Positions 25,118 through 43,652 of a DNA stretch of 64,000 nt are shown here, one piece after another (position 1 is the first letter of the stretch; the number at the start of each line of letters is the position of its first letter). The notes below the pieces were generated by a model. That model was not told the DNA's origin, made no database searches, and saw only the letters and a program-made list of their open reading frames with translations. The stretch is taken from IMG/VR virus record IMGVR_UViG_3300033146_001382, positions 125,442 through 189,441 of that record; one strand, written 5' to 3'. A program made the translations under genes and the position numbers. Source of the stretch: a virus.

Positions 25118-26425
25118 ATGAAAAAAAGAAAATTAAGTAAACAAGTTCAGCAGAAAAAAATTAAAGTGTTAGCATATTGTGACTCACCATCATGTGCTAC
25201 TGGTTTTGGTACAGTATCTAGAAATATATTTGAAGCTCTTTACAAGACTGGTAGGTATGAAATAGATATTCTAGGTATTAACTATTGGGGAGATCCACAT
25301 GGTCTACCTTATCGGATATGGCCAACAGGTATTAATGGAGACAAGGACCCTTATGGGCGTAGAAAAGTTACAAGTATGATCCCACAGATGAAATACGATA
25401 TATTATTTTTGTTACAGGATTCATTTATACTTGATTTCATGCCAGCACTTATGTCTCAGCTTAAGTCTTCCGGTAAAGAATTCAAATCTATTTGTTATTT
25501 CCCTATTGATGGTACACCTAAGTCACAGTGGATAGATAATGTAACTCAGGCTGATGAAGTAGTAGCTTATTCTCAATTTGGTGTAGATGCAGTTAAAGCT
25601 ATTCAGCCCGATTGTAAGGATTTACATATTATTCCACACGGCGCTAATGTAAATGAATTTAGGCCCTTACCTAAAAAAGATGTTAAAGCTTTTAGAAATC
25701 AGTATTTTGGTAAACATGCTGATAGTTTCATTGTTACTAATTTGAATAGAAATCAGCATAGAAAGGATATCCCGAGAACTATAGCGGCTTTTAAAAAGTT
25801 TAGAGAGTCAGTACCTAAATCTATTCTATACCTTCATATGGCATCTAAGGACCAGGGTTGGAATTTACCAGAGGTATGTAAATCTTATGGTTTTGATTTA
25901 GCAAATGATATTATTTTCCCAGAAAATTTTGGGCCCAATCAAGGATATCCTAGAGAGATAGTTAATATGATTTATAATGCTTCTGATTTAGTTGTGAGTA
26001 CTACTTTAGGTGAAGGATGGGGCCTATCTTGGGTAGAAGCTATGGCTGCTAAAACACCAGTACTTATGCCTAATAATACAGCTATAACTGAGAACATAAG
26101 TGCTGAGAGAGGGTACTTATGTGATAGTGGTACTAGTGCTGCTCTAACTACAGTTCTAGCTAATGATAATGAAGTAGTTAGGCCCTTGGTGGATGTAGAG
26201 GATATGGCTAATAAAATGGTGCATATAGCTAATAATTATGATGAAGCGCTAGCTAAAGCTGAAACAGCTTATAAATGGGTACATGATAATTTAAATTGGC
26301 AAGGTAATGTTGGCAAACAGTGGGTAGCTTTGTTTGATAAAGTGTACGCTGATTTAATAGAAGAAAAAATGTACGGTATTAGCTCTAGTACAGACAAAAA
26401 AACTATTAAAGCTGAAGTATTATAG
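25118..26425 (+). CDS. Glycosyltransferase, GT4/GT-B family
   Basis: DSPSCATGFG N-terminus, NRNQHRKD, and GEGWGLSWVEAMA (E-x7-E motif). Confidence 0.9.
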   Translation: MKKRKLSKQVQQKKIKVLAYCDSPSCATGFGTVSRNIFEALYKTGRYEIDILGINYWGDPHGLPYRIWPTGINGDKDPYGRRKVTSMIPQMKYDILFLLQDSFILDFMPALMSQLKSSGKEFKSICYFPIDGTPKSQWIDNVTQADEVVAYSQFGVDAVKAIQPDCKDLHIIPHGANVNEFRPLPKKDVKAFRNQYFGKHADSFIVTNLNRNQHRKDIPRTIAAFKKFRESVPKSILYLHMASKDQGWNLPEVCKSYGFDLANDIIFPENFGPNQGYPREIVNMIYNASDLVVSTTLGEGWGLSWVEAMAAKTPVLMPNNTAITENISAERGYLCDSGTSAALTTVLANDNEVVRPLVDVEDMANKMVHIANNYDEALAKAETAYKWVHDNLNWQGNVGKQWVALFDKVYADLIEEKMYGISSSTDKKTIKAEVL

Positions 26426-26458
26426 TTTGTACTATAAGATTAGTAACTAATTAAGATA

Positions 26459-26503
26459 ATGACCGCAAGTCTAAGTAATTTTGATTACTATTCTTGCGGT
26501 CAT
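26459..26503 (+). promoter_or_regulatory. Long intergenic stem-loop upstream of the ThyX-like gene
   Basis: atgaccgcaag (26459-69) / cttgcggtcat (26493-503) form a perfect 11-bp stem. agtaat/attact form a 6-bp upper stem with a tttg loop. Confidence 0.75.
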
Positions 26504-26518
26504 GGAATAAGGATTTCT

Positions 26519-27115
26519 ATGATTAAAGTAAAAAAACTAGCTGAAGATAAGAATAATTTTTTAGCTGCTTTATTAGGTATGGGATTGGCGTTTGATAAGA
26601 CTATAGAAGGTCTGGATAAAGGTATTGATATATTTTTTCACTCTGATGGCTCTTATAATAAATTGTACTTTACTATGTTGGATAGGGCAAAACGTATGTC
26701 ATTTAAAGGTAGGGGCCATAATAAATTTCTTAGGGCTATCAATATTGATTTTATTATACAAGCCCCCTGTGATTGGTGGCAACAACAAGCTACTTATACA
26801 ACTGTAGCTGCAGTACAATCTACCAGTACTATGCATATGCTAAAAAAATCTGGATTGGCTAACGGGGTAGACCCTTTAGTAGATGAGCTTATACTGAAAA
26901 GATATAATGAACTTCTTAAAGAAACTAATGATTTAGTTGTGTTGAAACGAAATTTACCTTCTGGGTATATGTATATAAGGACTGTTCATTTAAATTATAT
27001 GACTTTACAGCATATGGTAAATCAACGGCTTGAACATAAAGAACCAGAATGGCCAGAATTTTGCAAACAGGTATTAAATCAGATAGATCACCCCTATTTA
27101 GTTTTAAAAGATTAA
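26519..27115 (+). CDS. Divergent ThyX-fold (flavin-dependent thymidylate synthase-like) protein
   Basis: GHNKFLRAI.IDFIIQAP..WWQQ...STSTMH and LPSGY...NY..L..M..QR follow the ThyX layout but lack RHR and SxRY. ATG 26519 has an AAGGA RBS. Confidence 0.65.
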   Translation: MIKVKKLAEDKNNFLAALLGMGLAFDKTIEGLDKGIDIFFHSDGSYNKLYFTMLDRAKRMSFKGRGHNKFLRAINIDFIIQAPCDWWQQQATYTTVAAVQSTSTMHMLKKSGLANGVDPLVDELILKRYNELLKETNDLVVLKRNLPSGYMYIRTVHLNYMTLQHMVNQRLEHKEPEWPEFCKQVLNQIDHPYLVLKD

Positions 27116-27152
27116 TAAACTGACTTTATAATTTATAAAAGGATATATACAA

Positions 27153-28271
27153 ATGGAAATAAAAGGAATAAAATATACTGGACCTATATTAGATAATTCT
27201 GGATATAGTAAGGCTTGTAGAGGTAATATTTTAGCTTTGTATCACGCAGGTGTACCTATTACGCTTAATTCAATATCTTTTGAGTCAGCTCGTCCTGACC
27301 TAGGAGAAGATGGTAAAATTATTTATAGTTTGATAGATAAGAAAATAGATTACAATATCAATTTGATACATACTACACCTGAATTTTGGTCTCAGCATAA
27401 AGAGCGCACTGCTTGTAATATTGGGTATACTATATGGGAGACTACTAAACTACATGACGATTGGCCTGACTATATTAATAACAATGTGGATAAAGTACTC
27501 GTTGGCTGTAAATGGAATGAGAGTGTATTTAAAAATAGTGGGGTTACTATCCCTATTGGGGTTGTGCCACATGGTATAAATATTAATGAGTTTAATACCA
27601 TTGCACCATATCAAATAGCTGGTGTAAGGGATACTGATTTTGTATTTTATAGTATTTTCCAGTGGACTGAGCGGAAGTGCCCTTTAGCATTGCTGAAAGC
27701 ATACTACCATGCTTTTCAAAACAATGAAGAGGTAGTATTAGTCTTGAAAGCCTATGGGAATGATTACAGTGCAAAACAAAAACAGTCTATAGTTAATGCA
27801 ATAAAACACTTAAAATGGAATATGCCTATGCCTGTATTTCCTAAAGTAGTATTAATAGGTAATATGCTAACAGAAGATGAAATATCTGCAGTTCACGCAC
27901 GTGGAGATTGTTATGTATCTCTAGATAGAGGTGAGGGATTTGGTCTTAGTCCATTTACTGCCGGTGCAGCAGGTAATCCAATTATAGTGACAGGTTTTGG
28001 TGGATCAACTGAGTATGCTAAAGAAGATAATAGTTACTTAGTAGATTATACGCTTACACCTGTTTATGGAATGCCATGGTCCAGGTGGTATAACGGTACC
28101 CAGCTTTGGGCAGAGCCAGATGTAATCGATGGCGCTAATAAAATGAAATATGTTTATGAGCACCAAGAGAATGCTAAAGTAAATGGACAAGGGCTACAGG
28201 AGTATATTAGAGAGAATTTTTCATGGGAAGTAATCGCTAGAAAGATTATCAGCGAGATTGAGGAGCTATAG
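27153..28271 (+). CDS. Glycosyltransferase, GT4/GT-B family
   Basis: DNSGYS...TIWET...FQWTERK...GEGFGLSPFTAG. Confidence 0.9.
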   Translation: MEIKGIKYTGPILDNSGYSKACRGNILALYHAGVPITLNSISFESARPDLGEDGKIIYSLIDKKIDYNINLIHTTPEFWSQHKERTACNIGYTIWETTKLHDDWPDYINNNVDKVLVGCKWNESVFKNSGVTIPIGVVPHGININEFNTIAPYQIAGVRDTDFVFYSIFQWTERKCPLALLKAYYHAFQNNEEVVLVLKAYGNDYSAKQKQSIVNAIKHLKWNMPMPVFPKVVLIGNMLTEDEISAVHARGDCYVSLDRGEGFGLSPFTAGAAGNPIIVTGFGGSTEYAKEDNSYLVDYTLTPVYGMPWSRWYNGTQLWAEPDVIDGANKMKYVYEHQENAKVNGQGLQEYIRENFSWEVIARKIISEIEEL

Positions 28272-28280
28272 TAATAGCTA

Positions 28281-29693
28281 ATGGCCAGATTAATAGATAT
28301 AGAAAGTATAAAGACTTTGTTTAAGAAAGATAATTATTTAGTATTATCTACTAAGTATACACATTCTAAACAGAAGATTTCATATAAATGCCCTGATGGA
28401 CATTTACACTCCATGCGACTTGACCATTGGAGGAGAGGTGTTAGATGTCCGTATTGTTCTGATAAGTTTAAAAAATCTATTGAGTACATAAGGCCATTTT
28501 TCGCACTAGAAGGTTATAACTTAATATCTGACACATATATAGACGCTAATACTAAATTACACTTAGTTTGTCCTGAAGGGCATGATTATTACACTAGTTG
28601 GCATAACTGGAAATCAGGAAATCACAGGTGTTCAAAGTGTAATGGAGGTATACGTTTGGACGCATCCAGTGTTAATAATGTATTTAGTAAAGAGGGCTAT
28701 ACTATGGTAGGTGCATATGGTAACTGTCACTCTCCTATCGAATGCCAATGCCCTGAAGGTCATACATATTTGGTCACATTTGGTAATTTTACATCTAAAA
28801 ACACTAGGTGTACTGAATGTAGCGGTAATGGGGCGTCTTCTGGTGAAATTATGTTAAGGGATCACATTAAGTCTTTAGGGGTAGTAGCTATATACAACAA
28901 TAGAAAATTAATAACCCCATTAGAACTTGATATAGTAATACCATCTAAGAAGATAGCTATAGAATATTGTGGTTTGTATTGGCACTCAGAATTAAATGGA
29001 AAAGATAGAAAGTATCATTTAAATAAATTAAATCTGTGTCAAAAAATAGGTTATAAATTGATTACTATTTTTGAAGACGAGTTGTTATCTAATAAAGAAA
29101 TTGTTTTTAGTAGATTAACATGTTTATTGTCCAAAACTACTAGTAAAGTATATGCACGTAAATGTTCAGTGCGTCAGATTTCCCCTAGATTGGCTAAGGA
29201 GTTTTGCTCAACTAATCATATGCAGGGATACGGAGCAGGGGCTTACATAAAATTAGGAGCGTTTTATAAAAATAATCTAGTAGCGGTTATGACTTTTGCT
29301 AAACCATCTATTGCTAAAGGGTATAATAGTAAATTAGAGGGTGTGTATGAGTTACATAGATTTTGTAGTGTTAAGGATACTATTGTTGTAGGAATAGCTT
29401 CTAAACTGTTTAAATATTTTTTAAATAATTTTAAGTTTAATACTCTATTTTCCTACGCTGATAGACGATGGTCTACAGGAAATGTATATACTAAATTGGG
29501 GTTTGTTTTTAATAGTTATACTAGACCTAATTACTGGTACATTAAGGGTAAGAGAAGGATTAATAGATTCTCTCTTAGGAAAACAGTTGCTGATAACCAA
29601 GATATTACAGAATGGGAAAATAGGCGTCTCGCAGGCTATGATAGAATATGGGATTGCGGTAATTTAAAATATGTGTATAAAAAAGGAGATTAA
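28281..29693 (+). mobile_element. Free-standing Hef-like homing endonuclease with repeated zinc-ribbon (CPxGH) domains
   Basis: Three CP(D/E)GH...RCxxC repeats, ELDIVIP..KIAIEYCGLYWHS, and a C-terminal YARKC...NHMQG...SYADRRWS...RIWDCG domain typical of phage Hef-like endonucleases. Confidence 0.75.
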
Positions 29694-29697
29694 TTGT

Positions 29698-30183
29698 ATG
29701 AAGAAGACACTGAATATTGGGGCTGGTGAACGTGTGTACGCACATTACCCTACGGATAATTATGAGTGTATTAATTTTGATGAGAGGGATTTAAAAAGTA
29801 CTGATGTAGTAGGTGACGTAAGGGATTTAAGTATGTTCAATGATGAAGAGTTTGATTTTATTTTAGCTAGTGATATTATAGAACATTTTCCAATTAAAGA
29901 TGTACAAACTATATTAAAAGAATGGAGTAGAGTATTAAAACCTATTGGTGTTATTGAATTTAGGCTTCCTAACTTAGCCGCCATTTGTAAGCAATATATT
30001 AATAAAAAAAATGCTAGAAATATTAGTTGGTTACTATATGGAGGGCAAGATTATTCAGGCAATTTTCATTATACTTGCTATGATAGGGGGCTGTTCACAG
30101 AAGAGTGTGAAAAAGCAGGATTTAGTATACTTACCTACAGTGAAGAAGGATTTAATATGGTAGTCCGTTGTAGGAAGAATTAA
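29698..30183 (+). CDS. Class I SAM-dependent methyltransferase
   Basis: LNIGAG motif I, VGDVRDL, ASDIIEHF, WSRVLKP.G. Confidence 0.85.
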   Translation: MKKTLNIGAGERVYAHYPTDNYECINFDERDLKSTDVVGDVRDLSMFNDEEFDFILASDIIEHFPIKDVQTILKEWSRVLKPIGVIEFRLPNLAAICKQYINKKNARNISWLLYGGQDYSGNFHYTCYDRGLFTEECEKAGFSILTYSEEGFNMVVRCRKN

Positions 30184-30184
30184 A

Positions 30185-30826
30185 ATGTCTCAATTAAAGC
30201 TAGTGAGTGCTAATTTTGTTAAAAATGAGGCTCATTGTATAGAATTAATGCTAGACTCAGTACAGCCATTTGTTGATGATAGTTATATTTTAGTTGATAA
30301 AGACACTACTGATAACACTGCAGATATCTGTAAATCTAGAGGCTGTAAAGTTGAATACTTTGAGTTTGAGAATTTTGCTAAAGTTTGGAATACGCTTTTA
30401 TCTTGGGTTAACAGTGCTACAGATTGGACTATATTTATTGCTCCGGATGAAACTATTGATGCAGAGTTTGGTAATTTTTTAAGGCCCGCTATCGAAAAGA
30501 TGCATACTAAAACTACTGATGGTATGTGGTTTAGAAGGAAGCATTGGGTAGATTTAGAAAAAACTAAAGAATATACTGCACAAAATTGGTACCCTGATTG
30601 GCAATTACGTTTAATCAGAAACGACTACCCAAGAATACATTTAGTAAATTATGTGCATGAATGGCCCAAAGGTATACGAAAGACTATACGTACTAAAATG
30701 GATATACATCATTTTAATATGTATTGGAAACCGCGTTTAAATTATAATTTTGAAAAAATGAATACTTTATATGCTAAATTACAGAAATTACAGAAGGAAG
30801 ATGGCGGAGGTAATATTTGGCCATAA
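30185..30826 (+). CDS. Glycosyltransferase, GT2/GT-A family
   Basis: VKNEAHCI...TTDNT...APDE...YPDWQLRL...VHE. Confidence 0.8.
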   Translation: MSQLKLVSANFVKNEAHCIELMLDSVQPFVDDSYILVDKDTTDNTADICKSRGCKVEYFEFENFAKVWNTLLSWVNSATDWTIFIAPDETIDAEFGNFLRPAIEKMHTKTTDGMWFRRKHWVDLEKTKEYTAQNWYPDWQLRLIRNDYPRIHLVNYVHEWPKGIRKTIRTKMDIHHFNMYWKPRLNYNFEKMNTLYAKLQKLQKEDGGGNIWP

Positions 30827-30836
30827 GGAGCTTAAT

Positions 30837-31844
30837 ATGAAAATAGTTATTGTCGGTGCAGGATACTGGGGAAAAAATTTAATTAGAACATTTAATAATC
30901 TTGGGGTTTTAGCTGCTATTTATGATTTGGATACTAAGGCTCTAGAACATTATAAGAAAGACTCTGCATATAGTAAAGTAGAATTTGGTACTGATTATAC
31001 TAAGTGTTTACAACGTTGGGATATAGATGGAGTAGTAGTAGCTACTCCTCCAAACACTCATTATAGTATTGCTTCTGAAGTTTTAAGTAGTGGTAAACAT
31101 GTATTTATAGAAAAGCCTATGACTTTAGATGAGGAATCTTCTACACAATTAGTGGCTTTGGCAGAAGAGAAAAATAAAATCATTATGGTAGGGCATATTT
31201 TTCTTTATAGTCCAGAAATACTTAAATTAAAAGAGATTATTTCGGCAGAAACTTTTGGAGATATATGTTATGCATATACTCAACGGTTAAACTTAGGTAA
31301 AATTCAGGAATGTGGTGTTATAATGGATTTGGCTCCTCATGATGTGTCTATTTTAGATTATTTACTAGATGACACTTGTGAAAAAGTAAAAACCGTAGCT
31401 GACTCTCATGTTATAGATAATGTAGAAGATGTTTCTTTTATAACATTACGTTATAAAAAAGGGACATTAGCACATTTACATTTAAGTTGGCTAGATCCTC
31501 TAAAAGTTAGAAACACTGTAGTAGTTGGTACTAAACAGATGGTAGTGTGTGATTCAGGTACAAAAAAAATAGACATCTATAATACTTCAGTTGATTTTGA
31601 TGGGATTAAACAAGCGTCTAATAGCTCTTATGGAGCACATTTACTTACGTATACATATGGCGATGTAGTAACTCCATTTATACCTAATGTAGAACCTATG
31701 AGGGCAGAAGCAGAAGAATTTTTAAATTGTATGAAATTAAATAAATTACCACTTGCAGATGGATCATTAGGTTTAAGTGTAGTAAAGACTATAGTAGCTA
31801 TGAAAAATTCTTTAAAGGGGAATGGAAAATGGCAGAAAGTATAA
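30837..31844 (+). CDS. Gfo/Idh/MocA NAD-dependent sugar dehydrogenase (WbpB/WlbA-like)
   Basis: IVGAGYWGKN Rossmann motif, VATPP..H, HVFIEKP, DLAPHD. Confidence 0.9.
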   Translation: MKIVIVGAGYWGKNLIRTFNNLGVLAAIYDLDTKALEHYKKDSAYSKVEFGTDYTKCLQRWDIDGVVVATPPNTHYSIASEVLSSGKHVFIEKPMTLDEESSTQLVALAEEKNKIIMVGHIFLYSPEILKLKEIISAETFGDICYAYTQRLNLGKIQECGVIMDLAPHDVSILDYLLDDTCEKVKTVADSHVIDNVEDVSFITLRYKKGTLAHLHLSWLDPLKVRNTVVVGTKQMVVCDSGTKKIDIYNTSVDFDGIKQASNSSYGAHLLTYTYGDVVTPFIPNVEPMRAEAEEFLNCMKLNKLPLADGSLGLSVVKTIVAMKNSLKGNGKWQKV

Positions 31845-32662
31845 GTGCACACTTAATAACACATCAATGTGTCACTCTAGATTTTTGTGTGGAATCTACT
31901 ATTAGAAGTATGCTTGATTTCTGTGATGATATTTATATTAATGATGGAAAATCTACTGATGGTACCTTGGATATTTTGTATTCATTACAAAATGAATATG
32001 GTAGAGATAGAATAAAATTGTTTGAACGAGAATGGCAACATAATAGACGTATGTGGGCGGACGAGAAGAATTTTATATTAGATAAGATACCACAAGATTC
32101 TTATGTCTTATGCATAGATGCTGACGAAGCTTTACATGAAAAAGATATACATAAGTTAAAAGAGCTGACTTCAAAGGGGTTTAAATCTATTTCTTTTAAT
32201 GTAATACATTTTTATGGTAGACCTACTAATTTTATAGAAGGGCCAAATTGGTATAAAAGTCATACACGCTTATGGAAACGGTCTACAGGTATTAAGTTAA
32301 TATGTAGGCCAGGTGGTTGTGCAGATGATGTAGTATGGCCCAACGGACAACCAGCTCATATAATTAATCATCAACCTAGTGGGATATCTATTTATCATTA
32401 TGGTAATTGTAGAGATCCTAAAGCCCTTGGGATGAAAGCAAAAAAAGCTGATGATTTATATCAAAATAGTGATGAGTACAAAGGCGGGTTATTAGCTAAG
32501 CCCAGAGCATTTACATATGCTTTTGATTCTATTAAAACTCAAGTATTTAAAGGGACTCATCCTAAGTATGTAAAAGAATGGTGTAAAATACATAATAATC
32601 AGCCAACAGAGTACTTAGTAGAGGGTGAACAGCAAAATAAATTATGGTGTTTTGAGGAGTAA
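31829..32662 (+). CDS. Glycosyltransferase, GT2/GT-A family
   Basis: NDGKSTDGT and IDADE (DxD) motifs, and HYG. Confidence 0.85.
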   Translation: MAESISAHLITHQCVTLDFCVESTIRSMLDFCDDIYINDGKSTDGTLDILYSLQNEYGRDRIKLFEREWQHNRRMWADEKNFILDKIPQDSYVLCIDADEALHEKDIHKLKELTSKGFKSISFNVIHFYGRPTNFIEGPNWYKSHTRLWKRSTGIKLICRPGGCADDVVWPNGQPAHIINHQPSGISIYHYGNCRDPKALGMKAKKADDLYQNSDEYKGGLLAKPRAFTYAFDSIKTQVFKGTHPKYVKEWCKIHNNQPTEYLVEGEQQNKLWCFEE

Positions 32663-32664
32663 TT

Positions 32665-33285
32665 ATGACTATTATAATACATCCTACAGCGGTAGTTGAG
32701 ACTACTAATATAGGAGAAGGGACTTATATAGGACCATTTACATATATTACCAAAAGAGTTAAGATAGGTAAAAATTGTATAATAAATAATGCTTCTATAG
32801 GGTTGCCTGGAGAACATCCTGAAATTGTGGAAGACCATGGACATTTTATAGAAATTGCAGACAACGTGACTATTAGAGAGTATGTTACTATTAACACACC
32901 ATTATTCAGTAAAAGAACTTTTATAGGGGCTGGTAGTTACTTAATGGCTAAGTCTCATGTAGGACATGATGCTTCATTAGGAAAACATGTAGTATTACAT
33001 ACTGGTGCAGTAATAGGGGGGCATTCTACTATAGGTGACTATTGCTATTTAGGACTTAATTGCTCTACCCATCCATTTGCTAGATTAGATAGTTATTGTA
33101 TAGTTGGGGCAAATGGTATTTATAAAGGTAAATCTCCATCAGCATTAGTTTGGGTGGGAGTTCCAGCTGTTCCAATTAAAATTAATATGGTAGGGCTCGA
33201 TAGGCATTGCAAAGAGGGATTAAAACAGACTTTAATTGCTAATGCAGAAGTATTTTTAAATAGAGGGGGAACGAAAAATAAATGA
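32665..33285 (+). CDS. Hexapeptide-repeat (left-handed beta-helix) acyltransferase, LpxA-like
   Basis: IHPTAVV, VTIREYVTIN, LMAKSHVGHD, IGGH and STHP reproduce the LpxA His pattern. Confidence 0.85.
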   Translation: MTIIIHPTAVVETTNIGEGTYIGPFTYITKRVKIGKNCIINNASIGLPGEHPEIVEDHGHFIEIADNVTIREYVTINTPLFSKRTFIGAGSYLMAKSHVGHDASLGKHVVLHTGAVIGGHSTIGDYCYLGLNCSTHPFARLDSYCIVGANGIYKGKSPSALVWVGVPAVPIKINMVGLDRHCKEGLKQTLIANAEVFLNRGGTKNK

Positions 33286-34226
33286 GGTTAATTTGTGCAA
33301 CACCTATGTATAATGAATTAAATCATGTCCACGAATTCATTAATAATGTAGTTAGTCTTGACATATATGATGAAGTGGTTATATTGGATGATGGGAGTAC
33401 TGATGGTACATATGAAATACTATTAGATTATACTAAAAAATATAATAATTTACATGTTTTTAGAAATGATACTAATAGTATTTTATCGCATGGGTATAAT
33501 AGATGGACTAGATTATCTGAGTTGGTACGGGAGTTTAATCCTACTTGGGTAAATCTTAGAGCGGCTGATACTAAATATTCTTATCAATGTAGTTTATTTA
33601 TGAGAGATAGATTAATAAAACTCATGAATGAAGATATCCAATTGATCAGCCTCCCATGGGTGAATATATGGAGATCTAAAACCTGGTATCGTACAGATGG
33701 TCATTGGGGTAATTGGGCAAGACACGGAGTAGTACCTATCTGGAGATTTAGTGATAAGTTTAAATGGCACCCACAGCACACCAAGACAGGTATGCATCAG
33801 GGTATGTGTATACCATCAGATTTAGGTTTTAATGGGAAGAGATCTGTAGCCGGTTTAAATACTGATTCTAATTTGCCAATGGTTATTCTTCATGAAGGTT
33901 TGAGTACCCATGAGCAGATAGTGGATAAGTTTAGAAACTGTATGAGTTTAGCTAGAGCAGCTACTAAGATAGGAAGATCTAGAACCATGCCACCACCAGA
34001 AAATATGCCATCAGTAAACTCATGGCGTAATTTTGATGGGTACAAAGCATTTTATGAGTTTAATATTACATTAAAGCCTATCAATATGGAATGGTTATTC
34101 CCATCAGATAGATTAGAACTAGAGCCAAGTCCTATACCTAGATCATTATATGAGGTAATAAATGAGTTTAGCCCTGTGAGGGCAGAGGAATATAAAATAC
34201 TATTTAATAAGAGGTTTGTTATATGA
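33282..34226 (+). CDS. Glycosyltransferase, GT2-like
   Basis: PMYNE...LDDGSTDGT; AAD occupies the DxD position. Confidence 0.7.
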   Translation: MRLICATPMYNELNHVHEFINNVVSLDIYDEVVILDDGSTDGTYEILLDYTKKYNNLHVFRNDTNSILSHGYNRWTRLSELVREFNPTWVNLRAADTKYSYQCSLFMRDRLIKLMNEDIQLISLPWVNIWRSKTWYRTDGHWGNWARHGVVPIWRFSDKFKWHPQHTKTGMHQGMCIPSDLGFNGKRSVAGLNTDSNLPMVILHEGLSTHEQIVDKFRNCMSLARAATKIGRSRTMPPPENMPSVNSWRNFDGYKAFYEFNITLKPINMEWLFPSDRLELEPSPIPRSLYEVINEFSPVRAEEYKILFNKRFVI

Positions 34227-34891
34227 AATTAAATTATAAGAAAGCACCTAGAGAATTTTTTGAATCTTACCATAATAAATATGATGACGAACGTACTTTG
34301 ATTAATCCTGATTGGGAATGGTGGAGAGTAAAATATCACTATAATTTAGTAGAGAATGACATTATGTACTGGTTGTTAGCTACTAATCAATCTATGTCGG
34401 ATATGTCTATTTTGGATATTGGTGGTGGTACAGGTCATTGGTTGGATTTTTATACTAATTATTTAGAGTCTCTTAACATTACCATGTTAGATTTTTCTGA
34501 AGTGGTAGTAAAACGATTACGAAAAAAGTATCCTAAAATTAAAATACAACATTCTAATGTTGCTACTAAACAGTCACAATTTAGTAATAAATTTGATGTG
34601 ATAAATGCAATAGGGGTAATGTTTCATTTAGTAGATGATTCTATGTGGGAATCTGCTGTGATTAATCTATGTGCATATTTAAAAAGTGGTGGTGTAGCTA
34701 TTATAGGAGGTGAATTCGGGATTAACACCTATCAAGTTAGTCATCATAGAGTAGCTAGATCTTTAGAGTATTGGAAATCAGTAGTTGAAGCTAATGATTG
34801 TAAGATTGTTGGTGTAAAACAAAATAATTGGGTTTCTGGTATCTCTAATAACGGTATAATGGACAATACATTAGCATTCACTAGGAGATAA
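34223..34891 (+). CDS. Class I SAM-dependent methyltransferase
   Basis: ILDIGGGTG, LDFSE, FDVI, LKSGG. Confidence 0.88.
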   Translation: MKLNYKKAPREFFESYHNKYDDERTLINPDWEWWRVKYHYNLVENDIMYWLLATNQSMSDMSILDIGGGTGHWLDFYTNYLESLNITMLDFSEVVVKRLRKKYPKIKIQHSNVATKQSQFSNKFDVINAIGVMFHLVDDSMWESAVINLCAYLKSGGVAIIGGEFGINTYQVSHHRVARSLEYWKSVVEANDCKIVGVKQNNWVSGISNNGIMDNTLAFTRR

Positions 34892-34892
34892 T

Positions 34893-36086
34893 ATGTCAAA
34901 TTACATTGGCAAAGATTTTATTCATTATGGTTGCGGTTTGGAGATAAATTCAGAAGTAGTACTATCTTCAATTCCTAGAAGCTCAAAAAAAAATATTAAA
35001 AAGGCTGAAACCTCTGATATAATTGTGACTAATGTCATAGGCACAGCTGAAGAATTAGAAGACCTTAGGGGTATTTGGTATTATTATGACGACCCTAATT
35101 TTCCCCAGTATGATAAAAATAATTTAGTATATATGGCGTACTTAAATGAGGAGCTTATTGGTGGAGCTATATTAGTTCCAGTAGGAAACCATTTATTTCT
35201 TAATAACCTAATGGCTTCTGCAGTAGGAAAAAAATATCAATTACAAGGGTATCTTTTATGGTATATTGTAAATAATTTAATTACTTCACGGTTTAAATAT
35301 ATTGATGTGGGTGTTTCATATAGATTTAATTTATATAGTTTTTTTAAGAAATGGGCTACTTTCCATTATCCGGTTATTTTTAATCCACCAAAAATTGGCC
35401 CTCATATTAAATTTACACCTTTTAAAAGTATTGAGAATTTAACTAATGCTAAAGTAAATAATGATATTATAAATAGTTTTTTTAAAAATAGACCATTTAC
35501 TATTGTACCAGACATAAATTATGCTAATACTATAGCAGAGAAAGAATCAATTATAATAAATAGAACAATTGATGAATTTACATCACCTATTAAGCATGAT
35601 CTAGAGCCTATAGAAATTATAGATTTGACTGAATTGCTCCCTTTGCAGTTTGGTGCAGTGGTTGTTGGTATGGAAGTATCACCTGAAAGACTATGGGAAA
35701 AGTATGCATGTTATGACCATTATAAAACTGAATATATAAAAAAGTATATTTCTAAAGATTCTAAGTTGTATGAAGGTATAAAAGAACAACGAAGACATGT
35801 ATATGAATTATTTAATAATTATTTTAGTCAAGAAGATGTTACTATCATACATACTTCTAAATTTATAACTGGTTTTGAATTTTCATGTAAAGATATTAAA
35901 TTATTGTCTAAACGTTATACTAGATTTAAAGTAGCACATAAATTAACTAGTAGTACTTTAATTTTCCCCTGCCATCAAAATATCTCTGAGGTGGACGTAG
36001 AATATATTTATGCCATTTACAGAGGGTATTTGAATTTATGTAGTGAGTGGGAGTCTACTGGTGTTAAAGGGGTATTGAAGATATGA
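34893..36086 (+). CDS. Fusion of GNAT/FemAB-like acyltransferase domain and degenerate DegT-like C-terminal domain
   Basis: N-half KKNIKKA...IGGAIL...YLLWYI...YIDVG fits FemAB/GNAT. C-end LIFPCHQNISEVDVEYI fits the DegT C-terminal motif. Confidence 0.5.
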   Translation: MSNYIGKDFIHYGCGLEINSEVVLSSIPRSSKKNIKKAETSDIIVTNVIGTAEELEDLRGIWYYYDDPNFPQYDKNNLVYMAYLNEELIGGAILVPVGNHLFLNNLMASAVGKKYQLQGYLLWYIVNNLITSRFKYIDVGVSYRFNLYSFFKKWATFHYPVIFNPPKIGPHIKFTPFKSIENLTNAKVNNDIINSFFKNRPFTIVPDINYANTIAEKESIIINRTIDEFTSPIKHDLEPIEIIDLTELLPLQFGAVVVGMEVSPERLWEKYACYDHYKTEYIKKYISKDSKLYEGIKEQRRHVYELFNNYFSQEDVTIIHTSKFITGFEFSCKDIKLLSKRYTRFKVAHKLTSSTLIFPCHQNISEVDVEYIYAIYRGYLNLCSEWESTGVKGVLKI

Positions 36087-36907
36087 AAAATATTATAATA
36101 AATGGATTTGATAGATGTGGATCTTCTATGATATGTAGAGTGCTAGCTAAACATCCAGATGTGTCTATGTTATTTCAACCTACTAATAGTACAGAGATAC
36201 ATAAGGATTTATTTAGATATTGGCATCCAGAAGAAGTACATGATGCTACATATTCTTTTTTTAGCTCTTTAATAGAAAATAAATTAGATAAAAACTATAT
36301 TAAATCTATATGGTTTGATAAATATAGTAAATTAAAAAGTGGAGCTTCTATTAATTTAATAAAAGAAACTAAATGTCATTTAAAGATTGAGTGGTTACGC
36401 TATAATTTTCCAGATATAATTGTTTATGGTATATGGAGGGACCCTAAAGGTATACTCTGTTCTTTGGTTAGAAATAATTTTCATGAGGATTGGTATAAAA
36501 CACATTTAAATACATCAGAGTCTGCACATATTAAAGTAATAGAATTATTAAAAGTTTTAAATAGATACTCTGAATTTGAGGAAGTGTATAATTTAACTTC
36601 CAGTTCAATAGATAAAATGGCTTTCGTTATATCTGTGATGGTACAATTAATGGCAGAGAAGCTTCAGCCTACTGAATGGTTAATATATGAGGATATAGTA
36701 TTAGATCCAAATAAATTTTATAATTTATTTTTAGGTAAATTTGGTTTACCTTATTATGATTTTAATTCTTATATGAAAAAACCATATAATGTTAGTGGCC
36801 ATATGGATAATATAAATCCTTTTATTTGGAAAACTACATTTTCAAAAAAGCAAGTAGATAAATTAGACATATTATTTAATAATTTATATTGTATAGCAAA
36901 GGAGTAA
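36083..36907 (+). CDS. PAPS-dependent sulfotransferase family protein
   Basis: 5'-PSB-like IIINGFDRCGSS, 3'-PB-like WRDP...CS, and YEDIV.DP. Confidence 0.8.
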   Translation: MKNIIINGFDRCGSSMICRVLAKHPDVSMLFQPTNSTEIHKDLFRYWHPEEVHDATYSFFSSLIENKLDKNYIKSIWFDKYSKLKSGASINLIKETKCHLKIEWLRYNFPDIIVYGIWRDPKGILCSLVRNNFHEDWYKTHLNTSESAHIKVIELLKVLNRYSEFEEVYNLTSSSIDKMAFVISVMVQLMAEKLQPTEWLIYEDIVLDPNKFYNLFLGKFGLPYYDFNSYMKKPYNVSGHMDNINPFIWKTTFSKKQVDKLDILFNNLYCIAKE

Positions 36908-36909
36908 TA

Positions 36910-38028
36910 ATGAGTGTAAATTTTTTAGATTTAAAAAAACAGTATAGTAATATAGATATCCCAAAATTAATGGTGGGGTTAGAAGAAATTGTAACTAATG
37001 GAGCATTTGTAGGAGGACCACATGTTGAGTTATTTGAGCATAATTTTGCTCAATATCACAATATGAAGTATGCCTTAGGTGTGGGTTCAGGCACTGACGC
37101 ACTAATATTTGCTTTAGCAGGTCTAGGGATTGGTCCTGGAGATGAGGTGCTTATACCAGGTAATACATTTATAGCTACAGCTCTAGCAGTAACACATGTA
37201 GGTGCTACTCCAGTATTTGTAGATGTGAATTCACTTACTTATAATATAGATTATAATATTTCCAATTATATTACAAGGAAAACTAAGGCTATTATACCAG
37301 TACATTTATATGGAAATCCAGTCAATATGGATAATATCATGAGTGTAGCTAAGCTTGCCAATCTATTTGTTATTGAAGATTGTGCTCAAGCTATAGGTGC
37401 AAAATTTAAGGGCCAGAAGGTAGGGACATTTGGAGATGTAGGGTGTTTCTCTTTCTACCCCGCTAAAAATCTAGGAGGTTTAGGGCAAGGCGGGGCTATC
37501 ATAACCAATAATAAATTTGTTTTAAATAAAGCTAGATGCCTTGGTAATGTAGGTAGAAAGGATGACTCTTGGTATGAGTACAGTGCCGTGGGCTATAACT
37601 CTAGATTAGACGCAGTAAATGCTTTATTTCTAAATACATGTTTAAATCATATAGACAAATGGAATACTAAACGTAGATCAGTAGCTAAAAAATATAAGGA
37701 TAACTTAGAGGCGTGTACAGGAGTTGCGGTACCTTTCATAGATACAGGCTGTACCCCCGTGTACCATTTATATGAACTTAAATGTGAAAATAGTATGGAA
37801 AGAGATAACCTAAAGGCCTATTTAGCAGGACATGATATTTATTCAGCACTTCATTACCCTGTACCATGTCATAAACAAGAAGTATATAAGGAATCAAATG
37901 GTTTAGTTTTAGGTGTAGTTGAGTCATTAGCTGCTACTTTACTATCATTACCTATGCATCCTTTCATGACTACTGCTGAAATAGAAACAGTTACTACTAT
38001 AATTAAAGAGTACTTTAATAAGGGATAA
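36910..38028 (+). CDS. DegT/DnrJ/EryC1/StrS PLP-dependent sugar aminotransferase (WbpE-like)
   Basis: GSGTDAL, PVHLYG, IEDCAQAIG, SFYPAKNLG (PLP lysine), GYNSRLD, LSLPMHP. Confidence 0.95.
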   Translation: MSVNFLDLKKQYSNIDIPKLMVGLEEIVTNGAFVGGPHVELFEHNFAQYHNMKYALGVGSGTDALIFALAGLGIGPGDEVLIPGNTFIATALAVTHVGATPVFVDVNSLTYNIDYNISNYITRKTKAIIPVHLYGNPVNMDNIMSVAKLANLFVIEDCAQAIGAKFKGQKVGTFGDVGCFSFYPAKNLGGLGQGGAIITNNKFVLNKARCLGNVGRKDDSWYEYSAVGYNSRLDAVNALFLNTCLNHIDKWNTKRRSVAKKYKDNLEACTGVAVPFIDTGCTPVYHLYELKCENSMERDNLKAYLAGHDIYSALHYPVPCHKQEVYKESNGLVLGVVESLAATLLSLPMHPFMTTAEIETVTTIIKEYFNKG

Positions 38029-38034
38029 ATTAAA

Positions 38035-38529
38035 ATGGATTTTAGTAATATTGATATAATAGTTAGTGAGATAGACGGCATTCTTACAGATGGCTTCAAA
38101 CCTATAGATAATATGAATCTATGCCTGTTTAAAAACTATTGTGTGCAGGATTTTGAAGCCATTAATAAGTTGAAACAGTTTTTTACAGTGGTATTCATCT
38201 CTACTGATTCTGATGTGAGTTATAATGTAATGAGATCTAGGAGTATACCTGCCTATTTTACTAAATCTAAGGAAACTAAGCTAGAGGTATTGACTAAAAA
38301 AATTATGCCTAGGTATAATATGTCTCCAAACAACTTATTATACTTAGGTAATAAATTATCTGATGTACCATGTATGTATTATGCTGATTGTAGTCTTACT
38401 ATAGCTGAAGCTACTAATAAAGTAGTCTGTGCAGCTAAGAAGGTACTCCCTATCAGTTCTGGTACAGGGGTATTTACTAAACTATATGAAATACTTTCCC
38501 CTGAGCTAGACAGAAGGGCTAGACAATAG
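38035..38529 (+). CDS. KdsC/YrbI-like HAD-fold protein with altered catalytic motifs
   Basis: EIDGILTDG (canonical DVDGVLTDG), GNKLSD (canonical GDDxxD), and GxGVF near the C-terminus. Confidence 0.7.
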   Translation: MDFSNIDIIVSEIDGILTDGFKPIDNMNLCLFKNYCVQDFEAINKLKQFFTVVFISTDSDVSYNVMRSRSIPAYFTKSKETKLEVLTKKIMPRYNMSPNNLLYLGNKLSDVPCMYYADCSLTIAEATNKVVCAAKKVLPISSGTGVFTKLYEILSPELDRRARQ

Positions 38530-42900: not shown

Positions 42901-43178
42901 TGACTGTACATGATGAAGTTGTAGTAGAGGTAAGGAATGATCAGATCAGTGAGGTTTCAGATATAGTTTCTCAATCCCTTATTGATGGGTTTGCTACTTA
43001 CTTTAGTAAGATTCCTATGGAGGCTGACGCGTTATCTGGTCCTTGTTGGTTAAAAGGTTCTTGTGAGGCAGAAGATACAGATGGGAAAGAGTGTGGTAGT
43101 ACAAAAATGGAGTTTGCTCCAGATGATAAGTTAGGTACTAAATTAGTGTGCTCTAGTTGTGGGGCACCACAAGATTAA
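39966..43178 (+). CDS. polA: Family A DNA polymerase with 3'-5' exonuclease, intein in motif B, and C-terminal Cys4 ribbon
   Basis: ExoI VDTETTG, TGRMSSSAPNLQNIP, motif A ADMSGAELR, motif B KAINFGL|CYG, motif C VHDE. Confidence 0.96.
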   Translation: MSTFEVEQVGLPKPNYEYINNGEAVGVAIEDILKHNIIEVDTETTGFDPYTKKIVLVQIGIPGKSYVFDVRSDTERSSMHLDQLQPVLNNATILKLLQNAVFDMKMLKVKAGYYLENIYDTMLVEQLFNLGKIGRGARLADLVLKYLGLVLPKEPATTFKDYNQEYRPFQLEYAANDVTILSLIRELQLPRIKSEGFENVCRLEFEFTKPMCEMELNGITLDKDKWRIMMKDIDAERNSEFNLIQELLFSTYGKNVLFGVPVVNLDSPKQLLKALNTYGITNLDSTAEASLKRYKDVPVINSLLKFRKLNKLMSTYGETLLEKIHPITGRLHTRFKQMVSTGRMSSSAPNLQNIPKKQKYRSCFIAKPGYSLVTADMSGAELRILGNISEDKVFIECYANGIDLHTRTASEVFDTPMDKVKSSMRGSAKAINFGLCTSEHTEIITDSGIKTIKDVKVNDVVPHDIGTNKVIDHMYMGEKEVFEVTTKYGYSIEVTSEHLMKVIDGESNYVDKKLEDISIDKDNMCIKLGSNLFPKTNSIFEDFKIEKKTNYKDFSLPKILDTNWAAFLGLFIAEGSVFKVKGRDTYSTVGFDFSKKDYQLIEEIDKLFNKLFEDRFVRVTTDEFIRYTINSVIFAEWLVTILNIKGINKTNEIKIPSCIKNSSKGVQSVFLSWLFEGNGAIKSNGKGYRIQYSSKSKPLMNNLQVMLLNFGILVSLTYEYRKGYPDKYYCLTIIPYDYSSIFMNDIGFITYRKNNRANTASVYHTSCYFIGACRDKIEKIIENCDVSPQLKKRFYKKRCGGLIETIYLEELAKYDEFFKFIAINNVVTLPIVSIKSKGIKRVYDISVDNHPYFLANGFIVHNCYGLSKYGLADRLKITEKEADRMINTYFERYSGVKTYLDAAARGAIKNGFSQTVSGRKRFYNVPPYGHPDRKKVQRSVERAAKNAGIQGANADTIKESMILVVNRLEQSGLDAKLLLTVHDEVVVEVRNDQISEVSDIVSQSLIDGFATYFSKIPMEADALSGPCWLKGSCEAEDTDGKECGSTKMEFAPDDKLGTKLVCSSCGAPQD
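41271..42551 (+). mobile_element. Intein (427 aa) with LAGLIDADG-type endonuclease domain in polA
   Basis: Starts CTSEHTEI and ends ANGFIVHN before C. Blocks LGLFIAEGS and FLSWLFEGNG. Confidence 0.95.
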
Positions 43179-43202: not shown

Positions 43203-43652
43203 ATGAACGTAGAAATTAAATATATAAAACTAGACAAAGAGGCTGTACTTCCTAAATATGCACATGATACCGACGCATGCTTTGATATTTTTGCTTTAGA
43301 AGGTGGTAAACTGAGGCCACACATGCATGTATTAGTTAAAACAGGATTGGCTTATGCCTTACCTGCTGACTATGAGATACAAATTAGGCCTAGAAGTGGG
43401 AATGCTTATAAGAAAATGGTTACAGTGTTGAATACACCTGGAACCATTGATCAAGATTATAGAGGTGACCTTGGTGTAATCCTTGTTAACCACAGCAATA
43501 ACCCATTTGTTTGGGAAGCCGGCCAAGCTATAGCCCAGGGAGCAATAAAGCCTGTGTATAGAGCTGACTTCATTGAAGTAGATACTTTAGATGAGACTGT
43601 AAGAGGTGGAGGTGGATTTGGGTCCACTGATGCACCTAAAGAAAATAACTAA
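43203..43652 (+). CDS. dut: Trimeric dUTPase
   Basis: ACFDI, RPRSG, GTIDQDYRG, RGGGGFGST. Confidence 0.96.
   Translation: MNVEIKYIKLDKEAVLPKYAHDTDACFDIFALEGGKLRPHMHVLVKTGLAYALPADYEIQIRPRSGNAYKKMVTVLNTPGTIDQDYRGDLGVILVNHSNNPFVWEAGQAIAQGAIKPVYRADFIEVDTLDETVRGGGGFGSTDAPKENN

Follow-up and report, generated by a model that had tools for sequence, protein, structure and literature searches.

A gene island that could build a multi-sugar, perhaps sulfated glycan within the DNA-replication genes of an uncultured jumbo phage

Flagellin glycosylation islands such as that of Pseudomonas aeruginosa, located between flgL and fliC, carry out cytoplasmic O-glycosylation of protein without a lipid carrier, and the WbpB/WbpE/WbpD and GnnA/GnnB/LpxA enzymes provide routes from UDP-GlcNAc(A) to 3-amino-3-deoxy UDP-sugars. 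Among phages, virion glycosylation has reportedly been found in the mycobacteriophages Che8, Corndog and Myrna by Freeman et al. 2023 (Cell Host Microbe; cited in PMC12619734). Chloroviruses PBCV-1/NY-2A and Mimivirus are described as glycosylating their own capsid or fibrils autonomously (PMC9614988, PMC4691112). Other phage clusters glycosylate DNA, with simpler sugars in T4 (alpha/beta-GT with gp42), RB69/DLP3 (arabinosyl-5hoC) and RL38JI, and include clusters with a 5mYOX/ThyS-linked GT; placement in the replisome module is typical of such DNA-modification clusters (PMC13326640; bioRxiv 10.1101/2023.12.21.572611).

The window that we analysed is a 64,000-nucleotide stretch of the 189-kb IMG/VR virus record IMGVR_UViG_3300033146_001382. 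At 25118-38529 it holds 15 co-oriented ORFs, 13 of which encode sugar enzymes: two GT4 and three GT2 glycosyltransferases, two methyltransferases, a UDP-GlcNAc-3-dehydrogenase-like oxidoreductase, a DegT aminotransferase, an LpxA-like acyltransferase, a FemX-like/DegT-like fusion, a sulfotransferase and a KdsC-like phosphatase. All 13 had been named in the original prediction and were recovered in place with Pfam, PHROG and NCBIfam/TIGR models or, for the fusion, a structure model. The genes are mostly overlapping, as predicted, with intergenic gaps of 33, 37 and 62 bases only and the rest abutting or overlapping. The predicted placement between recombination genes and the clamp loader/polymerase was also reproduced, with beta-clamp, RecA, DnaB, primase, RuvC and a PD-(D/E)XK nuclease upstream, and clamp loader, PolA, dUTPase, RNR, NT5C deoxynucleotidase and dCMP deaminase downstream. 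The ORFs are:

25118-26425, plus strand: GT4a, GT-B glycosyltransferase, first of the conserved pair (Pfam Glycos_transf_1 1.2e-10; PHROG 2170 8.5e-54)
26519-27115 (listed start 26459), plus strand: ORF2, divergent ThyX-fold protein, not a sugar enzyme (AF2 model, Foldseek, Pfam Thy1)
27153-28271, plus strand: GT4b, second GT-B glycosyltransferase (Pfam Glyco_trans_1_4 7.7e-7; PHROG 2170 3.3e-26)
28281-29693, plus strand: ORF4, Hef-like homing endonuclease (PHROG 559 1.5e-116; Pfam zinc ribbon, CapR, Mom-family C-terminus)
29671-30183, plus strand: MT5, small SAM methyltransferase (Methyltransf_11 1.3e-10)
30185-30826, plus strand: GT2 (GT-A) glycosyltransferase, common to several relatives (Glycos_transf_2 2.1e-5; PHROG 13126)
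30771-31844, plus strand: Gfo/Idh/MocA oxidoreductase (PF01408 1.9e-23; NF040723)
31829-32662, plus strand: GT2 glycosyltransferase (Glycos_transf_2 5.1e-10)
32665-33285, plus strand: left-handed beta-helix acyltransferase, LpxA-like (Hexapep 3.5e-22)
33282-34226, plus strand: GT2 glycosyltransferase (Glycos_transf_2 1.3e-12)
34223-34891, plus strand: MT11, SAM methyltransferase, first gene of the distal cassette (Methyltransf_25 7.2e-13)
34893-36086, plus strand: ORF12, FemX/Sbb17-like N-terminal half and DegT-like C-terminal half (AF2 pLDDT 91.5, Foldseek)
36083-36907, plus strand: sulfotransferase-family protein (Sulfotransfer_3 1.1e-7, 32.7 bits against a cut-off of 27)
36889-38028, plus strand: DegT/DnrJ/EryC1 PLP sugar aminotransferase (PF01041 4.3e-103)
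38035-38529, plus strand: KdsC-like HAD sugar-phosphate phosphatase (TIGR01670 9e-11, 42 bits against a cut-off of 107; Hydrolase_3 1.5e-4)

This inventory supports the chemical potential foreseen for the locus, a multi-sugar chain carrying amino, N-acyl or aminoacyl, methyl and sulfate groups. The idea of a single 13-kb sugar island held for the enzymes but not for the unit: ORF4 is a Hef-like homing endonuclease and ORF2 has a ThyX fold, and therefore neither is a sugar enzyme. By sequence comparison, the 13 kb is a composite of a conserved two-GT4 core and variable, partly bacterium-derived tailoring genes. The search of related phages for the same gene set that had been proposed found the GT4 pair kept, whereas the tailoring genes behind it vary.

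GT4a homologues (48-85% identity) follow the PD-(D/E)XK nuclease in 80 of 80 related viral contigs compared. GT4b, a GT4a paralogue at 20% identity, is seen in 70 of these loci, and most of the ten without it end soon after GT4a. Among solved structures, chlorovirus B736L is nearest to both proteins (1.2e-13 over the full length of GT4a; 5.3e-12 for GT4b), and the clade of the pair is mostly viral. In all seven aligned GT4b sequences, Thr replaces the second Glu of the E-x7-E signature.

The slot between the two genes occurs in four states across relatives: empty, canonical ThyX, a ThyA-like enzyme or the ORF2 type. ORF2, for which homologues favour a start at 26519 over the listed one, has an AF2 model (pLDDT 89.2) that matches H. 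pylori and T. maritima ThyX in Foldseek (TM 0.71-0.73); it scores just 11.7 bits against Pfam Thy1, and members of its family score 25.6-35.6 bits. The canonical ThyX motif RHR...SQRY reads TYT...STMH in ORF2. One alternative is that the slot gene, here ORF2, makes a C5-modified pyrimidine for DNA, which GT4a/GT4b would glycosylate and the other enzymes would extend or decorate. Replisome and nucleotide-metabolism genes on both flanks fit this account. So does the grouping of GT-B genes around a ThyS homologue, together with sugar-donor genes and a HAD phosphatase: the DLP3/RB69 arabinosylation clusters are built in this way (PMC13326640), and the arrangement has served as a published criterion for DNA-glycosylation clusters (bioRxiv 10.1101/2023.12.21.572611). 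In 12 relatives the slot holds a ThyA-like gene whose product has the catalytic Cys as well as Asn177 and Asp169; its residue at E. coli position 143 is Asp, as in the SPO1 gp29 dUMP hydroxymethylase and unlike canonical TS. ORF2 is well conserved although the canonical RHR/RY residues are lost, and an intein interrupts GT4b in two relatives; both points also speak for DNA.

However, we consider DNA an unlikely acceptor. A thymidylate-synthase-type gene lies exactly between the GT4 genes in 32 of 70 relatives. In 38 of the 70 the two genes are immediately adjacent, and eight relatives other than these 38 have a different insert in the gap, which Pfam identifies as canonical ThyX in five of five tested (1e-57 to 1e-66, RHR..SQRY intact). 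The slot gene is thus optional, and the GT4 pair is therefore independent of a hydroxymethylated-base maker. In complete relatives with adjacent GT4 genes the sole ThyS-type gene is a canonical ThyA ~100 kb away, and Tet/JBP enzymes are absent from the five genomes of the lineage checked; because only canonical ThyX/ThyA and no Tet/JBP are present, the DNA of some relatives would lack a known sugar-accepting base. Elsewhere, the ORF2 family occurs in small phages that lack glycosyltransferases; it neighbours dUTPase and RNR there and is their only thymidylate-synthase-type gene, a context that fits plain dTMP supply. GGATCC is found 0 times against ~33 expected, counting both strands, as if the DNA were still open to a restriction enzyme, and glycans described on DNA in the literature consulted have three sugars at most.

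The tailoring genes change fast between phages whose flanks are 60-85% identical. An MT5-type gene follows GT4b in many relatives, and cyanophage S-CBS4 carries a similar methyltransferase after GT4 and GT2 genes. The Gfo/Idh/MocA ORF is probably a nucleotide-sugar 3-dehydrogenase, its best NCBIfam match being NF040723 UDP-GlcNAc 3-dehydrogenase (2.6e-51, 175 bits against a cut-off of 450). The hexapeptide ORF matches TIGR01852 LpxA best (1.3e-33) and also NeuD/PglB/VioB (2.9e-23), both under their cut-offs.

The distal genes have counterparts in bacteria. MT11 is 38-45% identical to the same-position gene of bacterial cassettes, and the sulfotransferase is 35-42% identical to the gene following the Fem-like gene in four bacterial loci and has no close relative in IMG/VR. 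A Pfam search of ORF12 gave no match; in Foldseek its model matches Sbb17 (3.6e-6), FemA and FemX (~2e-4) and sugar aminotransferases (~4e-4), and the N-terminal half is predicted to be like an aminoacyl-tRNA-dependent transferase fold. Its 92 homologues, a few of them tagged PF13480, are bacterial where named, and no relative was found in IMG/VR. For the DegT protein, the PseC, WecE and LegC models are equally far, all below cut-off. The methyltransferase, Fem-like, sulfotransferase and DegT genes, together with Gfo, form a block collinear with cassettes of Thiogranum, Saltatorellus, a Planctomycetota MAG and a Chitinophagales MAG (35-45% identity), a comparison that shows a bacterial ancestry of the distal cassette. 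In Thiogranum the cassette lies between flgK (1.9e-92)/flgL and the flagellin gene fliC, with a GT2-TPR protein adjoining; such a flagellar setting was seen in only one of 28 bacterial loci.

ORF4 is 37% identical across 98% of its length to the AR9/PBS1 'Hef-like homing endonuclease', and 10-13 similar copies occur in each Campylobacter phage genome (both tblastn). Three relatives lack it, and there GT4b abuts the methyltransferase gene. Judged by this homology, ORF4 is a mobile insertion outside the sugar pathway. The locus is an insertion hot spot, with homing endonucleases at three distinct places as well as inteins. Together with the four slot states, and with the differing histories of the viral GT4 clade and the bacterial distal cassette, this could suggest two systems, in which the GT4 core (with any Thy-type gene present) serves one acceptor, such as DNA, and the GT2/tailoring genes another, such as virion proteins, the two sets being neighbours only because the spot tolerates insertions. 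We find such a division quite improbable, as GT4b through the HAD phosphatase overlap or abut in operon-like fashion and, without the GT4 pair, the GT2s would have no candidate initiating enzyme, though the three GT2 could serve.

No island ORF contains a 19-residue stretch with membrane-helix hydrophobicity, and none of the 165 ORFs of the whole record has more than two membrane-helix segments, hence no polytopic membrane protein. The predicted lack of export or membrane genes is thereby confirmed for the island and extended to the record, but the step from there to a cytoplasmic acceptor is unsafe: soluble GT2/GT4 enzymes also serve undecaprenyl-linked sugars, those of bacteria usually without membrane helices of their own, and a host initiating transferase and flippase could be borrowed. 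Surface-polysaccharide loci usually hold GT2/GT4, a Gfo/DegT/acyltransferase trio (WbpB/E/D, GnnA/B logic), methyltransferases and sulfotransferases, which is also the content of the island, and their glycosyltransferases mostly lack membrane helices. The enzymes might thus work at the membrane's inner face, modifying host intermediates of O-antigen, capsule or S-layer glycan that are linked to undecaprenyl, and rely on host initiating transferase, flippase and polymerase; the altered surface would block superinfection or stop progeny sticking to debris. ORF12, the sulfotransferase, MT11 and DegT are closest to bacterial proteins, and the island of one related contig includes a GT9 (heptosyltransferase-family) gene. 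An envelope acceptor nevertheless seems doubtful to us, given the absence of polytopic membrane proteins and a mostly viral GT4 pair that is universal in a lytic-looking jumbo-phage lineage regardless of host; one fixed pair would have to suit many differing host lipid-linked acceptors. The Saltatorellus cassette, moreover, has no Wzx-type gene nearby.

We favour, at a probability of about 0.42, a phage-run, membrane-independent pathway whose candidate acceptor is the phage's own particle proteins. In the pathway that we infer, substrates, order of steps and acceptor included, host UDP-GlcNAc (or a similar UDP-HexNAc) would be oxidized at C3 by the Gfo/Idh/MocA enzyme and transaminated by DegT to a 3-amino sugar, whose amine would be N-acylated by the LpxA-like enzyme or amino-acylated by FemX-like ORF12 from an aminoacyl-tRNA donor. 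The two methyltransferases and the sulfotransferase, using host SAM and PAPS, would decorate the sugar or the finished chain, which the lineage-wide GT4a/GT4b would start on the acceptor and the three GT2 would extend. Attachment may occur in the cytoplasm, ahead of assembly, with Ser/Thr-rich fibres, baseplate or tail proteins as targets.

The original prediction had proposed phage DNA or S/T-rich fibres as acceptor, and the evidence leans to virion proteins, through the Thy genes of relatives, the cultured phages and the flagellar cassette. The closest cultured-phage GT4a homologues adjoin morphogenesis genes. S-CBS4 has GT4, GT2 and methyltransferase genes together between its portal gene and those for head protease/major head protein, and in TJE1 the homologue is grouped with nucleotidyltransferase, epimerase and methyltransferase genes upstream of terminase. 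Hydroxymethylase-type genes are absent from both genomes. The virion proteins are rich in Ser/Thr (20-26%) and contain 2.34 T-x-S-G per 1000 residues, compared with 0.34 for non-structural proteins, although the motif may be structural because some copies lie inside an internal structural repeat (DTPSTYSG..TGSG). The rapid turnover of tailoring genes fits a surface-exposed product. Counting against virion proteins, the island sits inside the replisome module, away from late genes. The ThyS-type slot genes, the dissimilarity of GT4a from mycobacteriophage glycosyltransferases and the rarity of the flagellar context also weigh against them.

Compared with described systems, the island resembles the WbpB/E/D and GnnA/B/LpxA routes in its trio of Gfo/Idh/MocA 3-dehydrogenase, DegT aminotransferase and hexapeptide N-acyltransferase, but the three phage enzymes fall below equivalog cut-offs, their genes are scattered rather than adjacent, and no WbpA-type 6-dehydrogenase was seen within the island. 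It shares with the Thiogranum locus its distal gene order and, potentially, the logic of cytoplasmic filament-protein O-glycosylation; unlike flagellin islands, the phage encodes neither a GT2-TPR transferase nor a flagellin. DNA-glycosylation clusters likewise place GT-B/GT-A genes beside a ThyS-type gene, sugar-donor genes and a HAD phosphatase near DNA polymerase. In contrast, members of this lineage can do without the Thy-type gene, and the version here is ThyX-like in fold but has a degenerate active site, a kind of protein that the literature consulted does not describe as making a base handle. 5mYOX is absent, and amino-sugar and sulfation genes have not been reported in those clusters (PMC13326640; bioRxiv 10.1101/2023.12.21.572611). 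Like the giant viruses, the phage encodes its own sugar-nucleotide tailoring (aminotransferase, acyltransferase, methyltransferases) with cytoplasmic glycosyltransferases; those viruses infect eukaryotes, no acceptor is assigned to B736L/A546L in the descriptions consulted, and the passages that we draw on mention neither a sulfotransferase nor a Fem-like enzyme (PMC9614988, PMC4691112). The island shares with Che8, Corndog and Myrna phage-encoded soluble glycosyltransferases and methyltransferases without export machinery, whose products in those phages reportedly end on capsid or tail proteins. It differs from them in belonging to a jumbo phage, in lying within the replication module and in a GT4a with no detectable similarity to their glycosyltransferases, and its potential chemistry is much richer, with a 3-amino sugar route, a Fem-like transferase and a sulfotransferase.

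The island at window 25118-38529 is best read as a phage-run pathway that would glycosylate proteins in the cytoplasm, a reading to which we give a probability of about 0.42. Its unusual features are a conserved pair of GT4 glycosyltransferases, GT4a and GT4b, within the replisome, rapid exchange of tailoring genes, and a cassette, apparently captured from bacteria, that includes a Fem-like transferase and a sulfotransferase. Profile searches of the island ORFs (Pfam, PHROGs, NCBIfam) confirmed every enzyme listed in the original prediction. These include the two GT4 proteins, which are paralogues with 20% identity, three GT2 glycosyltransferases, two SAM methyltransferases, a Gfo/Idh/MocA oxidoreductase with UDP-GlcNAc 3-dehydrogenase as its top model, a DegT aminotransferase, a hexapeptide acyltransferase nearest to LpxA, a Sulfotransfer_3 protein and a KdsC-like HAD phosphatase. 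The 3-dehydrogenase, PLP aminotransferase and N-acyltransferase families of a UDP-GlcNAc3N(Ac) route (WbpB/E/D, GnnA/B type) are all present, each scoring below its NCBIfam equivalog cut-off. A predicted GT4a-GT4b complex scored 0.60, against 0.47 for the control, a difference that we count neither for nor against an interaction.

ORF12 (34893-36086) has no Pfam match and had been guessed to be a fusion of GNAT-like and DegT-like parts, which its structure model (pLDDT 91.5) and fold matches bear out. Foldseek matched the N-terminal half to the aminoacyl-tRNA-dependent transferases Sbb17/Sba18, FemA and FemX, and also to MprF and L/F-transferase, while the C-terminal half resembles DegT-type aminotransferases; a few ORF12 homologues carry a PF13480 tag. 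The modelled N-terminal half thus has a predicted Fem/GNAT-like fold and is a putative aminoacyl-tRNA-dependent transferase of the FemABX type.

The IMG/VR virus record, from an uncultured phage, spans 189,441 bases with a CheckV completeness of 72%, and the window is its final 64 kb. As anticipated, the island holds no membrane genes, with no membrane-helix-like stretch in any of its proteins. Across the record, itself about 72% complete, none of the 165 ORFs has more than two hydrophobic segments, and the polytopic proteins of a Wzx/Wzy or ABC locus (initiating phosphoglycosyl transferase, flippase, polymerase, ABC permease) were not found among them. The island thus has the gene content looked for in virion-protein glycosylation, soluble glycosyltransferases and sugar-tailoring enzymes that occur without lipid-carrier or export machinery. 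Remodelling of a host envelope glycan would be another use for the island, since its enzymes are typical of surface-polysaccharide pathways. Surface-polysaccharide enzymes of these types can do without membrane helices themselves. We regard this explanation as unlikely.

A GT4a search of IMG/VR returned at least 114 related stretches, of which 80 loci were fetched. A PD-(D/E)XK nuclease followed by GT4a occurs in all 80, and GT4b follows GT4a in 70; the other 10 have no visible GT4b, most of them ending soon past GT4a. The genes behind the pair vary between phages. They include GT9, further GT1 genes and an FkbM methyltransferase in locus L004, a Dam-type methylase, UDP-GlcNAc 2-epimerase and DXD transferase in L010, and Gfo and a hexapeptide transferase in L006 and L087. 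ORFs 5-10 of the island, which run from the first methyltransferase to the last GT2 gene, recur in some relatives, such as L135. Related phages share the GT4 pair (70/80) and, in some cases, ORFs 5-10, but not the tailoring genes as a whole, and no relatives of ORF12 or the sulfotransferase were found in IMG/VR. In L010, a 238-kb relative, the gene directly after GT4b (9727-10566) encodes a D12-class N6-adenine DNA methyltransferase. No cultured phage matched the island by Megablast, and moraphages (PMC12619734), considered as members of the same lineage, were rejected on their PolB and T4-like cores.

Thiogranum, Saltatorellus and two MAGs (one of Planctomycetota, one of Chitinophagales) carry a cassette in which counterparts of the island's methyltransferase, Fem-like, sulfotransferase and DegT genes, plus Gfo, are collinear, at 35-45% identity. 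Given this collinearity and the lack of IMG/VR relatives for ORF12 and the sulfotransferase, the phage probably took a ready-made bacterial sugar-tailoring block, and the distal part of the island is a predicted capture from bacteria. In the Thiogranum MAG (L178 6147-12791) the cassette lies between flgK/flgL and the flagellin gene fliC, with a GT2-TPR protein alongside. This is the layout of flagellin glycosylation islands, whose enzymes act on the filament protein in the cytoplasm and use no lipid carrier. By analogy, the bacterial cassette is a candidate for an uncharacterised flagellin-glycan pathway. Flagellin genes beside the cassette in other bacteria were not upheld, as a tblastn search for neighbouring FlgK and FlgL gave none in the bacterial loci beyond Thiogranum. 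The Saltatorellus context, a metalloprotease and one ORF without a match, is uninformative on role, and no Wzx-type gene was found near that cassette. Gfo, methyltransferase, Fem-like/DegT-like fusion, sulfotransferase and DegT are conserved as one bacterial cassette in different phyla (L178; also L180, L204 and L191).

Several observations point to virion proteins as the acceptor. The flagellar setting of the Thiogranum cassette matches the membrane-free gene set of the phage. Additionally, the closest cultured-phage homologues of GT4a, in cyanophage S-CBS4 and in TJE1, stand beside morphogenesis genes, accompanied by a GT2 and a methyltransferase in the former and by sugar-nucleotide genes in the latter. 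No hydroxymethylase-type gene was found in either genome, and S-CBS4 gp013 and TJE1 orf13, which adjoin the GT4 homologues, were rejected as Thy-like proteins after no similarity was found. The virion proteins are Ser/Thr-rich, with T-x-S-G about 7 times commoner than in other proteins, part of this excess lying inside a structural repeat. The virion protein at window 1916-3949 has nine copies (about 1 expected) within a repeated module, DTPSTYSG..TGSG. In the virion protein at record 102883-104547 there are eight (about 0.5 expected) in varied contexts (T[VIL]SG). Homology to enzymes with proven virion acceptors was not found, GT4a having no match to mycobacteriophage glycosyltransferases at 1e-5. 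Among solved structures both GT4a and GT4b are closest to the chlorovirus glycosyltransferase B736L, a likeness that is uninformative because B736L has no assigned acceptor and also resembles the T4 and RB69 DNA transferases.

The position of the island raises the alternative that it hypermodifies phage DNA, which we consider unlikely. It sits inside a replisome module, with beta-clamp, RecA (intein), DnaB, primase, RuvC and the PD-(D/E)XK nuclease upstream, and clamp loader, PolA (intein), dUTPase, RNR, NT5C deoxynucleotidase, RNase HII, Dam methylase, ligase and dCMP deaminase downstream. Its GT-A and GT-B glycosyltransferases are adjacent to each other and near replication genes, as looked for in DNA-glycosylation clusters, and there is a parallel with the DLP3/RB69 clusters. 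The NT5C, dUTPase and dCMP deaminase set downstream also favours DNA.

Genes downstream of the island (window positions)
43203-43652: dUTPase
46481-47083: NT5C-type pyrimidine deoxynucleotidase
48493-49299: Dam-type gene, placed otherwise than the D12-class gene that follows GT4b in L010
52339-53340: dCMP deaminase, long (333 residues)

The ORFs of 25118-38529 are tightly packed, with just three short gaps, and 162 of the 165 ORFs called in the whole record lie on the + strand, so the co-orientation of the island genes tells little. A phage-encoded protein of 715 residues, mostly PAS domains, is found at window 54705-56852. Against DNA hypermodification, GGATCC is wholly absent from the 189-kb record (0 versus about 33 expected, both strands), a hint against full protection. 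Palindromes are not generally avoided, with a median observed/expected ratio of 1.0 for 4-mers and 0.96 for 6-mers, and the missing site suggests pressure from a BamHI-like restriction system.

Thymidylate-synthase-type genes frequently neighbour the GT4 pair, a further point for DNA, and we surveyed the slot between GT4a and GT4b in the 70 loci having both.

State of the slot between GT4a and GT4b
GT4a and GT4b directly adjacent: 38/70 loci
ORF2-type, ThyX-like: 12/70 loci
ThyA-like: 12/70 loci
Another insert: 8/70 loci

Five of the eight other inserts were examined, and all are canonical ThyX (1e-57 to 1e-66) with RHR..SQRY intact, one carrying an intein. The ThyA-like slot protein of L004-L006 (228-252 residues; PF00303, 2.9e-12) retains the catalytic Cys, Asp169 and Asn177, has Asp in place of E. 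coli ThyA Leu143, and has lost His147. SPO1 gp29, a known dUMP hydroxymethylase, shares both changes, and canonical phage thymidylate synthases do not. Residue criteria for reading such ThyA-type enzymes were taken from PMC13326640. This SPO1-like signature favours DNA as the acceptor and had at first seemed to argue strongly for glycosylated 5-hmU DNA, a reading that the slot survey changed. The slot is optional among relatives, which counts against DNA; an obligatory 'GT4-Thy-GT4' unit was rejected, the 80-locus survey having given empty slots (38/70) and canonical ThyX in others. Thus, the GT4 pair is kept with or without a maker of an unusual base. The slot behaves as a thymidylate-synthase site that would have undergone serial non-orthologous replacement at one spot. 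In two complete relatives (296-298 kb) whose GT4 genes are adjacent, a textbook ThyA lies about 100 kb away, and a Tet/JBP enzyme is absent from all five lineage genomes searched.

The slot gene of this phage, ORF2 (start ~26519; window 26519-27115), is predicted to fold as ThyX (model pLDDT 89.2; Foldseek TM 0.71-0.73, E 6.8e-7), and scores 11.7 bits against Pfam Thy1, under the 24.8 cut-off. At the RHR-x7-S-x-RY signature it reads ATYTT...QSTSTMH, where the canonical ThyX of relatives has VRHRLASYSQQSQRY. Its family, met in at least 207 viral contig stretches, shares the motifs GHNKFLE, DTYR and QSESTMH, with no RHR/RY. In small T7-like phages it adjoins dUTPase and RNR genes, and the complete phage genomes tested have no other thymidylate-synthase-type gene; members in cultured Desulfovibrio, Clostridioides, Clostridium and Fusobacterium phages carry no annotation. 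The family could represent a type of thymidylate synthase that has so far gone unrecognised, or enzymes that modify bases. The 189-kb record holds no ThyA, Tet_JBP or canonical thymidylate synthase, and ORF2 is its sole candidate maker of a base handle. We find it very improbable that ORF2 is a previously unrecognised ThyX-fold base-modifying enzyme whose pyrimidine handle bears, on the phage DNA, an oligosaccharide with amino-acyl, methyl and sulfate groups. In T7-like phages, ORF2 homologues have small neighbours that clustered as 'GT4-like'; this linkage proved to be a shared-intein artefact, the neighbours being Metallophos or PolA proteins.

Mobile elements have also entered these loci. 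ORF4 (28281-29693) has full-length similarity to Hef-like homing endonucleases (PHROG 559, 1.5e-116; 37% identity to AR9/PBS1), relatives of which reach 10-13 copies per Campylobacter phage genome. It is missing from close relatives, where GT4b abuts the methyltransferase directly. ORF4 is a predicted Hef-like homing endonuclease outside the sugar pathway; its C-terminal match to Pfam Mom (1.6e-8) had raised a Mom-like DNA modifier, rejected on the Hef likeness, the multiple copies in other phages and the absence from close relatives. Different Hef/HNH-type endonuclease genes with zinc ribbon and CapR occur at differing points of the island (window 28281-29693, L010 5550-6590, L004 14785-15660). 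LAGLIDADG inteins are found in RecA (16515-18659) and PolA (39966-43178) of the window, in the canonical ThyX of L130 (7346-8566), and in GT4b of L070 (8567-10759) and L009 (8600-10900). An intein inside a glycosyltransferase is unusual.

The lineage is abundant in metagenomes, and by keeping its glycosyltransferase pair while exchanging the tailoring genes it offers a natural experiment in how glycans diversify. The bacterial cassette represents a sugar pathway yet to be characterised, with flagellin glycosylation as its possible use. In the searchable literature we found no jumbo-phage glycosyltransferase cluster described as combining a Fem-like transferase with a sulfotransferase. To our knowledge, virus-encoded glycosylation has been chemically proven for few phages only: mycobacteriophages, on their virions, and T-even-like and some other phages, on their DNA. 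If the product of this island is attached to DNA, no DNA modification known would be as elaborate. If it coats virions, phage glycan coats would extend to aquatic jumbo phages and to sulfated and amino-acylated sugars.
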